Shown in pieces: positions 3,437 through 3,900 of a stretch of 14,862 nt of DNA. The notes under the pieces were generated by a model that ran no database searches, was not told where the DNA came from, and saw only the letters and a list, made by a program, of their open reading frames with translations. Both the position numbers and the translations under genes were made by a program. The stretch comes from a virus. Taxonomy: Duplodnaviria > Heunggongvirae > Uroviricota > Caudoviricetes. The stretch lies in IMG/VR virus record IMGVR_UViG_2778261344_000012; one strand, given 5' to 3'. Positions within the stretch are counted from its first letter, which is position 1. Each line of letters opens with the position of its first letter.

Positions 3437-3900
3437 TTTGCTGCTCCTCATCATATCGACCTTGCAAGGTCGGTTGGTTTCTCCACAAAACAGAGAAGAA
3501 CACCTGCGGTGGCAGCCGCCCGGATGGATTGGGTTATGAGCCCGTCGTCCGGTGATGCTCTTCTCTGTTTTGCAAAAAAGGACGGTACCAGCCGGAAGCA
3601 AGGGTACAAACTGGTACCGCCAGGACTACACACAGCATAAAGTTGTGGTGCCGGGTGCCTCCCGGTGCCTGGCGAAGGTTGCACACCAGGCGGGTGGGTA
3701 TCCACAGAAGGTCGACTGTCAGCCTCAACCTTAACCCGCGTGCGCTGAGCCGCATTCACCACAACGCTAAGGATTCTCTCTGGTTGAAAATACTTAGCTG
3801 TTATGTGCCTGCTTTTAGCCACATCAGGCGAGGTGGACCTGGTTATTCCCCAACAACAAGGATTCGGTTAATCTGGATATCCCCAACAACAATAAGAGTA
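3437..3900. other. GC-rich, highly structured non-coding region (candidate cis-acting RNA element or sRNA)
   Basis: No convincing ORF: overlapping track ORFs are Pro/Arg/Gly-rich with no RBS. Contains a perfect 16-bp palindrome CGACCTTGCAAGGTCG (3457..3472), a 14-bp long-range inverted repeat CAAAACAGAGAAGA (3486..3499 / 3559..3572), an 8-bp inverted repeat GGTACCAG/CTGGTACC (3584..3591 / 3611..3618), a tandem CCGG(G)TGCCT (3651..3670), GCCTGG/CCAGGC (3667..3691), and a direct repeat TCCCCAACAACAA (3847..3859 / 3880..3892). Confidence 0.3.

Follow-up and report, generated by a model that had tools for sequence, protein, structure and literature searches.

A minus-strand chain of structured RNA modules, including a pseudoknotted relative of STnc100 and a KilS-like terminator module, upstream of the yfdP-int operon of an Escherichia coli lambdoid prophage

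The DNA analysed here (IMG/VR record IMGVR_UViG_2778261344_000012; the whole stretch of 14,862 nucleotides is called the window) comes from a lambdoid prophage of Escherichia coli of the SfV/SfIV/ST64B type, and our subject is the non-coding region of about 460 bp (464 bases) at positions 3437-3900. This locus is a non-coding minus-strand chain of structured RNAs, with the immunity region on one side and the yfdP-yfdQ-yfdR-...-xis-int operon on the other. A 100% match to the 464 bases was found in prophages of Shiga toxin-producing E. coli (STEC) strains of serogroups O103, O26 and O45, for instance at NC_013353 575932-576395; identity to the region was 99.8% in Escherichia phage PhiR49_1, 97.6-98% in Shigella phage SfIV and 96.5%, over 86% of the query, in SfV. 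Among 5426 complete E. coli genomes, 3008 have a match. Annotation was taken from the identical prophage in the RefSeq record of E. coli O103:H2 12009, in which yfdP is followed, in order, by yfdQ, yfdR, yfdT, xis and int; the left end of the window falls inside the excision region, and the identical prophage of NC_013353 runs on to int. The genes around the region are as follows.

2184-3008, minus strand: yfdQ, downstream of yfdP; yfdR and yfdT, further on in the window, are also on the minus strand
3074-3436, minus strand: yfdP, the first protein gene downstream of the region (RefSeq annotation of the identical prophage; phrog_204)
3907-4422, plus strand: moron (phrog_1244), with its own terminator at 4461-4480
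4742-5434, minus strand: cI-like repressor gene
11304-11702: Q (PF06530)

Right of the repressor gene come, in order, cro, a cII-like gene, replication genes, Q, a porin moron and lysis genes. Operators of 17 nt, TTGCGTGATATGCAAAT, are present at 4651 and 4673 (OL) and at 5455 (OR), and because of the repeats at 4651 and 4673 the leftward promoter PL was placed near 4690-4630. A preliminary description of this DNA, made from the sequence alone, had set the region at the head of the early-left operon, but the region lies about 800 nt downstream of PL, with the oppositely oriented moron (3907-4422) in between. Within the region the following modules were distinguished, given in the order in which the minus strand is read.

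3838..3861, minus strand: hairpin 0, CCUUGUU...AACCAGG, with the loop GUUGGGGAAU
3798..3837, minus strand: conserved 5' block, CCACCUCGCCUGAUGUGGCUAAAAGCAGGCACAUAACAG
3642..3765, minus strand: core RNA domain, about 125 nt, a pseudoknotted multi-helix member of the STnc100/PasD superfamily
3574..3641, minus strand: KilS/DicF-type small RNA (sRNA) module, starting about 5 nt after helix P1 of the core
3477..3572, minus strand: element 2, a second conserved leader
3457..3472, minus strand: small hairpin, CGACCUUGCAAGGUCG, 7 nt upstream of the yfdP Shine-Dalgarno sequence
3449-3444: yfdP Shine-Dalgarno sequence, GAGGAG, with the start codon at 3436

The region is richer in GC (0.53-0.57 over 3301-3900) than its flanks (0.40-0.45), as had been claimed, and its minus-strand RNA has an unusually stable predicted fold: the 404 nt from 3840 to 3437 gave -171.9 kcal/mol compared with -136.4 +/- 5.8 kcal/mol for shuffled sequences (z = -6.14; 0 of 100 as good), and the plus strand gave z = -2.86. 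On the strength of these folding scores and the many conserved G-U pairs the modules were assigned to the minus (early-left) strand, hairpin 0 and the 5' block only provisionally; for the core, the assignment was made because conserved G-U pairs are frequent in it. The alternative of a plus-strand leader for the adjacent moron is disfavoured for 3437-3800, since the conserved G-U pairs would become A-C on that strand. Each of the repeats on which the preliminary description had based its proposal of a structured RNA was recovered as a helix of a conserved, covarying minus-strand module. Thus the perfect 16-bp palindrome CGACCTTGCAAGGTCG (3457-3472) is the small hairpin before the yfdP ribosome-binding site (RBS); the 14-bp arms CAAAACAGAGAAGA (3486-3499 / 3559-3572), which can be extended to 24 nt at 83%, belong to the outer stem of element 2; the 8-bp stem GGTACCAG/CTGGTACC (3584-3591 / 3611-3618) is the centre of an intrinsic terminator; and the tandem CCGGGTGCCT/CCCGGTGCCT, CCGG(G)TGCCT (3651-3670), and the pair GCCTGG/CCAGGC (3667-3672 / 3686-3691) are helices P5 and P4 of the core, respectively.

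That the region does not encode a protein also held up. There is an open reading frame (ORF) of 123 codons starting with GTG at 3451-3822 on the minus strand, the Prokaryotic Genome Annotation Pipeline (PGAP) marks a 'frameshifted hypothetical protein' at 3451-3762 (minus), and the SfIV record lists the overlapping ORFs SfIV_34/35, all of which could be taken to indicate a degenerate protein-coding gene. However, the ORF passes through the terminator and every structured module, indels of 1-2 nt break it in relatives that are 97-98% identical, no reading frame was open across all homologues, and the substitutions in helices are compensatory and show no codon periodicity. A degenerate gene is therefore hardly credible, and the PGAP pseudogene and the SfIV ORFs are annotation artefacts. 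In the sampled matching E. coli records no non-coding RNA feature was listed under the match. At gathering thresholds Rfam gave no matches in the window; of the permissive matches, those to ftsZ-DE, Hairpin-ribozyme, mir-5880 and a snoRNA were judged to be noise, and only the match to STnc100 was meaningful.

The core is a multi-helix junction that is closed by P1 and locked by a pseudoknot, with the following elements.

3765-3757 with 3650-3642, minus strand: P1, GUUGUGGUG paired with CACCACAAC
3753-3738, minus strand: P2, a hairpin
within the core: P3, a short GCGGG/CCCGC helix, enclosing the pseudoknot strand AAGGUUG (3732-3726) and a variable insert
3691-3684 with 3674-3667: P4, GCCUGGUG paired with CGCCAGGC
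3681-3675 with 3732-3726: pseudoknot, in which the P4 loop CAACCUU pairs with the strand enclosed by P3
3665-3651: P5, CCGGG-AGGCA-CCCGG

Covariation across homologues, which had been named at the outset as a check on the idea of a structured RNA, supports both the core helices and the pseudoknot. In a structure-blind MAFFT alignment of 17 diverse early-left copies, 90.7% of the cells could pair, compared with 33-41% when the partners were slid, and double changes were seen in 20 of the 44 pairs; none of 500 shuffles reached the observed values on four of the five measures used (percentage paired, double-change counts, covariation score), and 3 of 500 did so on the fifth, the number of further pair types. 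This alignment, combined with a hand-drawn structure, was used to build a covariance model, R1. When 64 distinct copies were aligned with the model, 94.9% of the cells paired and 22 of 37 pairs had double changes, values that come from an alignment fitted to the model and hence biased towards the structure. P1 changes from the pairing seen in the window to AAUGCAGUG/CACUGCAUU in Klebsiella phage Kp4884 and to UUUUGUGAUGCGGUG/CACCGCAUCACAAAA in Qin, and P5 changes from CCGGG/CCCGG to CCUGG/CCAGG or GGUGG/CCACC around a constant AGGCA loop. The pseudoknot was counted with a register-free script, as the model-derived alignment had set the window-type loop one column off, and it was found to consist of seven contiguous Watson-Crick pairs in four sequence versions (CAGUUAA:UUAACUG; AAGGUUG:CAACCUU, that of the window; AAGGCUG:CAGCCUU; and UGGUUAU:AUAACCA), where shuffled loops average 3.5; additional versions are present in Kp4866 and in canonical STnc100. 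A natural deletion variant was also noticed (L077, 3128-3215), in which a 93-nt deletion has removed P3, P4 and the pseudoknot and left P1, P2 and P5, and which still scores 81 bits. On inspection the core gave no match to CRISPR-repeat mimicry, a CsrA-type GGA loop or an internal boxA.

The covariation also bears on whether the repeats act at the level of DNA, either as operators or as recombination 'linkers' at the borders of mosaic modules that promote exchange or bind a protein. Homology does break sharply at query positions 186, about 400 and 454, giving mosaic junctions near 3622 and 3836, and inverted and direct repeats are found at the border of the moron (described below). In Stx2c-type phages, 96% identity extends over window positions 3437-3622 (terminator, element 2, yfdP); ahead of the terminator they have a strongly diverged core whose P2 and interior are different (phage Stx2c_EH0474, L004, 3191-3341, minus; 25 bits), which places the mosaic junction at the 5' edge of the terminator. 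However, DNA sites require neither compensatory double substitutions at more than 20 positions nor strand-specific G-U pairs, and the operators of this phage differ in sequence and lie elsewhere. A function at the DNA level is consequently very improbable.

The kinship of the core was first indicated by Rfam, in that the STnc100 model (RF02076) matched positions 3572-3795 of the minus strand over its full length, terminator included, with 40.3 bits (E = 3e-7). The covariance-model search that the preliminary description had suggested thus gave a family, at a score below the 47-bit gathering threshold. Sub-threshold STnc100 matches were found at the equivalent site in SfV, SfIV, ST64B, Cronobacter phage phiES15 and Klebsiella phage Kp4884-1, and the scores of these and of the K-12 Qin copy were 34-41 bits. 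A motif of 22 nt, CACCGGGAGGCACCCGGCACCA, is an exact match to the STnc100 consensus. The consensus helices of STnc100 and its 3' terminator (here 3621-3574) are all present in the window, and the helices are backed by covariation. Recognition was reciprocal, since canonical STnc100 members matched model R1, which had been built from early-left copies.

window 3636-3775: 97.9 bits with R1, the sole match in the window
K-12 Qin: 140.9 bits with R1
K-12 Rac: 129.5 bits with R1
canonical STnc100 of phage PA28, 75 nt downstream of stxB: 67.2 bits (E = 3e-17) with R1
Klebsiella phage 1 LV-2017, late-region copy: 48.9 bits with R1

These scores together define a single superfamily with an early-left and a late-operon branch. 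The window RNA and STnc100, both encoded by lambdoid prophages, have in common P1 with its inner GGUG/CACC, P2, P4, the P5 hairpin CCGGG-AGGCA-CCCGG, the 22-nt 3' motif, and a layout in which a structured domain is followed by a single-stranded stretch and a Rho-independent terminator. They differ in the sequence of P2, in the seed and in the terminator; the Rfam model lacks the pseudoknot; and canonical copies belong to the late region, where they follow Q and stx (or other morons) and precede the lysis genes, whereas the copy in the window is early-left and none was found close to its Q (11304-11702) or lysis genes. A link between STnc100 and the PasD1/PasD2 sRNAs of enteropathogenic E. coli, which are reported to be sited near Q and lysis genes, has already been proposed (bioRxiv 10.64898/2026.05.13.724894), and the kinship of the core with PasD goes through that link rather than through comparison with PasD sequences.

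IMG/VR yielded at least 120 contigs with a pattern for the conserved 5' part of the core, GTGAATGCGGCTNNGCGCACG, and 82 of the cores in them are distinct. Many of these copies end just ahead of a gene for a DicB or KilR homologue, with 20-45 nt between the element and the start codon. In K-12 one copy lies in Qin between dicF and dicB (L131, 2445-2588; NC_000913 1649444-1649587), with dicF ending at 2435 and dicB starting at 2610, and the other in Rac between kilS and kilR (L132, 3257-3401; NC_000913 1418256-1418400, minus); both are unannotated in the RefSeq record, and no description of the core was found in the literature searched on the dicF-dicB or kilS-kilR spacer. The order of modules is therefore not fixed: DicF, core and dicB in Qin, and KilS, core and kilR in Rac, compared with the core followed by a KilS-like module in the window, phiES15 and ST64B. 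That the core changes place with respect to the terminator speaks against a simple switch specific to that terminator, and the invariant loops and the pseudoknot argue for a specific partner of the core.

These properties would also suit a riboswitch-like or factor-binding cis-regulatory element of the 5' untranslated region (UTR), in which the core, and separately element 2, would bind a metabolite or a host or phage protein and so set the translation or stability of the next gene, and in which the core in the window would have been joined to the sRNA module merely by mosaic recombination at the junctions near 3622 and 3836. Most of the distinct copies end the stated 20-45 nt ahead of a Shine-Dalgarno sequence and start codon, element 2 is likewise placed between the sRNA terminator and the first ORF, the build is typical for an aptamer (P1 closes the domain, nucleotides of the junction and loops are conserved, peripheral inserts vary, and there is a pseudoknot), and the toxic products encoded downstream (DicB, KilR) would need tight control. 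On the other hand, there is no obvious alternative pairing that hides an RBS or a terminator, no Rfam riboswitch or ribozyme model matched, the downstream genes are too heterogeneous for a common ligand logic, and no candidate binding protein consistently co-occurs. We consider such an element rather unlikely.

Following the core, the KilS/DicF-type module is made up of two parts.

3637-3617, minus strand: seed, single-stranded UGCUGUGUGUAGUCCUGGCGG
3621-3611 with 3591-3581, then 3579-3574, minus strand: intrinsic terminator, an 11-bp GC-rich stem of GGCGGUACCAG and CUGGUACCGUC followed by U6

The seed shows 21 nt of identity to KilS (b4833) of the K-12 Rac prophage, and seeds of this type are conserved in ST64B, phiES15 and Citrobacter phage phiNP. 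KilS was seen in Hfq RIL-seq (in which interacting RNAs are ligated and sequenced) and confirmed by northern blotting, has yncL as its reported target (Bar et al. 2021, PMC8175672) and may possess a promoter of its own (PMC8175672). The two RNAs both have a terminator hairpin of the GGCGG...CCGCC type with a U-run, and both adjoin the core in the early-left operon of a lambdoid prophage. They differ in that the order is inverted, KilS preceding the core and kilR in Rac and following the core in the window, where the downstream gene is yfdP instead; in addition, the 5' part of KilS (GUGGGAGUGCGCCUCCGG...) is missing from the window and the terminator loops are different. Between the seed and the yncL 5' UTR a 10-bp match was found (UGUGUGUAGU with ACUAUACACA), which 18 of 300 shuffles equalled, and pairing with ftsZ was no better than with shuffles.

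Membership in the DicF family was ruled out, as the Rfam model (RF00039) gave 15.7 bits (E = 1.3) at 3580-3634, minus, against a cut-off of 48 bits and a score of 76.7 bits for K-12 DicF itself. The module nevertheless resembles DicF in its equivalent operon position, in adjoining the same core (which in K-12 is between dicF and dicB), and in the shared hairpin base UGGCGGUAYCAGUUU, and like DicF it would be processed or terminated from an early-left polycistronic transcript; its seed sequence is different. An ops/RfaH site in GGCGGTA was rejected on inspection, as position 8 is C or U and not G; ops needs a C3:G8 pair, which is impossible with either base.

Downstream of 3574 no comparable further terminator was found on the minus strand, and the U-run is followed directly by element 2, an arrangement kept in nearly all variants seen. 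In element 2 the outer stem is long (3572-3551 with 3506-3486), an arm bears the invariant CGACGGGCUCAUAACCCAAUCCAUCCGG, a hairpin varies, and UGUGGAGAAAC (3487-3477) is conserved and single-stranded; RNAalifold gave a three-way junction of 38 pairs, 9 of them with compensatory changes. Its invariant motif, CGACGGGCUCAUWACCCAAUCCAYCCGG, was found in at least 120 IMG/VR contigs with 57 distinct sequences. After element 2 come UGUGGAGAAAC, a variable small hairpin and the RBS of whichever gene is first; the small hairpin varies among phages, and many variants retain a UGCAG-like loop (CGACCUUGCAGGGUCG, GGCGGUGGCAGCCGCC, GCGCCGGUGCAGAGGCGU and GCCCCUACGGGGGC). The genes on either side gave no indication of a defence role, as the moron, YfdP and YfdQ had no PADLOC matches and matched only PHROGs without assigned function.

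Upstream of the core, the stem of hairpin 0 covaries among phages (for example UCCUUAAAA/UUUUAAGGA, UACUGG/CCAGUA and CUCG/CGAG) around the conserved loop motif UGUNGGGG, as judged from 34 distinct upstream variants. The hairpin's 5' arm is complementary to the AAGGA Shine-Dalgarno sequence that divergent plus-strand morons have in other phages. Candidate sigma-70 -10 elements at this site (AATAAC, TATAAG, TATAGC) were rejected, the hexamers being the 3' arm of the covarying hairpin. The 5' block may form an H-type pseudoknot (CCAC/GUGG with GCCUG/CAGGC), of which the second stem changes to GCCCGG/CCGGGC in Rac-type copies. It is found in window-, Rac- and Qin-type loci, always upstream of a KilS/DicF-type terminator and the core; together with hairpin 0 it also precedes KilS in Rac-type loci, and in Qin-type loci the two are found about 315 nt upstream of the core. 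A second copy of the hairpin 0 motif (3895-3870) is the left arm of a 26-nt inverted repeat, 85% complementary, at 3870-3895 / 4424-4449, which exactly brackets the plus-strand moron, and a 13-nt direct repeat, TCCCCAACAACAA, is present at 3847-3859 and 3880-3892 on the left border of the moron. On either strand the 26-nt arms might pair with each other over a long range, giving a possible RNase III site, or else they could mark the moron as an insertion cassette.

Insertions ahead of the position of the core were observed in two phages: about 350 nt, following the 5' block, in Klebsiella phage Kp4866-6 (L006, about 2830-3200, minus) and about 100 nt in phiNP (L007, about 2620-2800, minus). 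The Kp4866-6/phiNP insertion contains two motifs resembling the T-arm of tRNA, GGTTCGATTCCAGAC and GGTCCGTTCGATTCGGAC (GGTTCGATTCC); ARAGORN called no tRNA in it. In phiNP the core has been replaced, and the KilS-like seed and element 2 remain.

The preliminary description had raised the possibility of a put-like antitermination element, and this was not upheld. HK022 putL gave a local score of 22 (shuffles 16.3 +/- 2.2; 6 of 300 as good), with the match in a segment that is not conserved among homologues, and putR scored 16 against 17.7 for shuffles, without alignment. The put RNA is a V-shaped structure of about 70 nt with two stems and a triplex that directly follows PL, with a second copy after PR (PMC9378689). 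The window RNA shares with it only the general properties of a cis-encoded structured RNA in the early operon of a lambdoid phage without N; it has a junction and pseudoknot of about 125 nt, is about 800 nt from PL and, in the 14.9-kb window from PL to the lysis genes, PR operon included, has no second copy. Homology to put was therefore ruled out. Inspection of the list of ORFs did agree with the earlier statement that an N-like gene is missing, there being no small Arg-rich ORF between OL and yfdP, and no boxB was recognised. The core is, however, not simply a substitute for N, because at least one phage (L020) has the core and also an N-like Arg-rich protein.

An exact rrn-type boxA core, GCUCUUUAACAA (GCTCTTTAACAA), was found in the PL transcript at 4459-4448 (minus), directly after the hairpin at 4461-4480, an order that matches the boxB-boxA of rrn leaders. 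The boxA 12-mer was located 636-1011 nt upstream of the core and on the same strand in 19 of 107 core loci, and neither antisense nor downstream in any. The site falls outside 3437-3900 and no boxB/N pair was identified, but the sequence suggests that early-left transcription in this N-less phage may be modified by Nus factors against Rho. As far as is known, boxA/Nus complexes counter Rho and not strong intrinsic terminators.

With a strong intrinsic terminator inside the operon and no promoter-like site downstream of it, some mechanism of read-through is needed. The put RNA itself acts in cis, promoting passage of terminators by binding the zinc-binding domain of the beta' subunit of RNA polymerase. 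One explanation is that the nascent 5' block and/or core modifies RNA polymerase or blocks Rho, as a functional analogue, not a homologue, of put or EAR, so that PL transcripts pass the KilS-type terminator to yfdP-xis-int. Such an element would fit the lack of an N-like Arg-rich ORF between OL and yfdP and the presence of boxA upstream on the same strand; the core is directly upstream of the terminator both here and in canonical STnc100, and the 5' block is upstream of it in all arrangements; superfamily members sit within long operons, early-left as well as late; and the conserved loops and pseudoknot suggest a specific binding partner. However, resemblance to put is absent in both sequence and architecture, the cores of Qin and Rac lie downstream of the DicF or KilS terminator and cannot act on it, late-operon copies are in transcripts already modified by Q, an N-like protein accompanies the core in L020, and the window has a single core with none in the PR operon. 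Moreover, DicF and KilS accumulate in terminated form in K-12, where no transcript spanning dicF to dicB was detected (bioRxiv 10.1101/2023.04.14.536235). A read-through element of this kind is unlikely on balance.

The explanation that we favour, and consider probable, is that the region is a leftward multi-module RNA locus that makes an Hfq-type sRNA and whose terminator attenuates the yfdP-int operon. Of the functions put forward in the preliminary description, that of an sRNA was the one that fitted best. Transcripts from PL, and possibly from a weak local promoter, would stop at the terminator near 3574, releasing an sRNA of about 200-260 nt, perhaps processed to a shorter form, which, like KilS, PasD and DicF, would be bound by Hfq and would use its conserved seed to pair with host mRNAs. 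The same terminator would act as an attenuator, so that only read-through transcripts, which carry element 2, would express yfdP-int, and element 2 with the small hairpin would then serve as a 5' UTR controlling the stability or translation of yfdP. The core, as a folded domain on the 5' side, would keep the 5' end sequestered and would protect or organise the RNA that follows it, namely the sRNA seed in the window and, in Qin and Rac, the mRNA of dicB or kilR.

Several observations weigh against this explanation. The STnc100 score is, as noted, below the Rfam gathering threshold, and the minimum free energy structure of the single window sequence failed to reproduce P1. A consensus scan of 3300-5600 found no sigma-70 promoter, so the source of the transcript is only inferred. 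Most of the distinct copies of the core (Qin, Rac and Klebsiella types) lead to an RBS and ORF (dicB, kilR, TerB-like and others) and not to a terminator, and for this reason the core is not intrinsically an sRNA domain. Finally, the invariant P5 loop AGGCA, an invariant AAUGCGGCUNNGCGCACGCGG stretch and the covarying pseudoknot would be needless in a merely protective 5' structure.

These same features leave some room, tentatively, for a broader idea, that the core represents a distinct and widespread class of cis-acting regulatory RNA which, together with the 5' block and element 2, binds a partner and decides on passage past DicF/KilS-type terminators into toxic or recombination genes. As partners one may think of RNA polymerase, of Rho or Nus factors, of a phage protein or of a small molecule, and the core would then be an RNA counterpart of N/put for phages without N; the class may span the STnc100/PasD late operons, the early-left locus and the dicF-dicB and kilS-kilR spacers of K-12. 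This is a possibility worth entertaining but not one that we would expect to be correct.

Two further features came to light away from the region. On the minus strand of the window, at 11892-12989, a porin gene that is complete (PF00267, E = 2e-156) forms an oppositely oriented moron between Q and the holin gene, and a very AT-rich stretch (12900-13350; GC 0.26-0.29) follows it. In ST64B (L003, 5732-5920) and in an Stx2c phage (L004, 5373-5561), adjacent matches to isrK (64-67 bits) and C4 antisense RNA (80-84 bits) exceed the Rfam thresholds; the pair looks like a P1/P7-type ant immunity module.

STnc100, PasD, KilS and DicF were known already, and a relationship of PasD to STnc100 had been proposed in a 2026 preprint (bioRxiv 10.64898/2026.05.13.724894). 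Judged by the literature searched, the superfamily's early-left branch with its covariation-supported pseudoknotted fold is new, and so are the core before dicB and kilR in K-12, the fusion of the core to a KilS seed in this phage group and the second conserved leader before yfdP. What has been annotated as a 'frameshifted hypothetical protein' or, in phage records, as overlapping ORFs, in a region that roughly half of complete E. coli genomes possess, is really a conserved chain of RNAs, and STnc100, PasD (through the link made in the preprint), KilS and DicF, formerly separate, become shuffled modules of one lambdoid RNA toolkit; in K-12 itself, a complex pseudoknotted RNA immediately upstream of dicB and kilR has been overlooked. 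If the core or its neighbours act in cis, this would account for the way in which lambdoid phages lacking N get past the strong sRNA terminators within their early-left operons. If the locus is an sRNA gene only, it would add to the regulatory repertoire of STEC and Shigella prophages an sRNA with a KilS seed and a new 5' domain.

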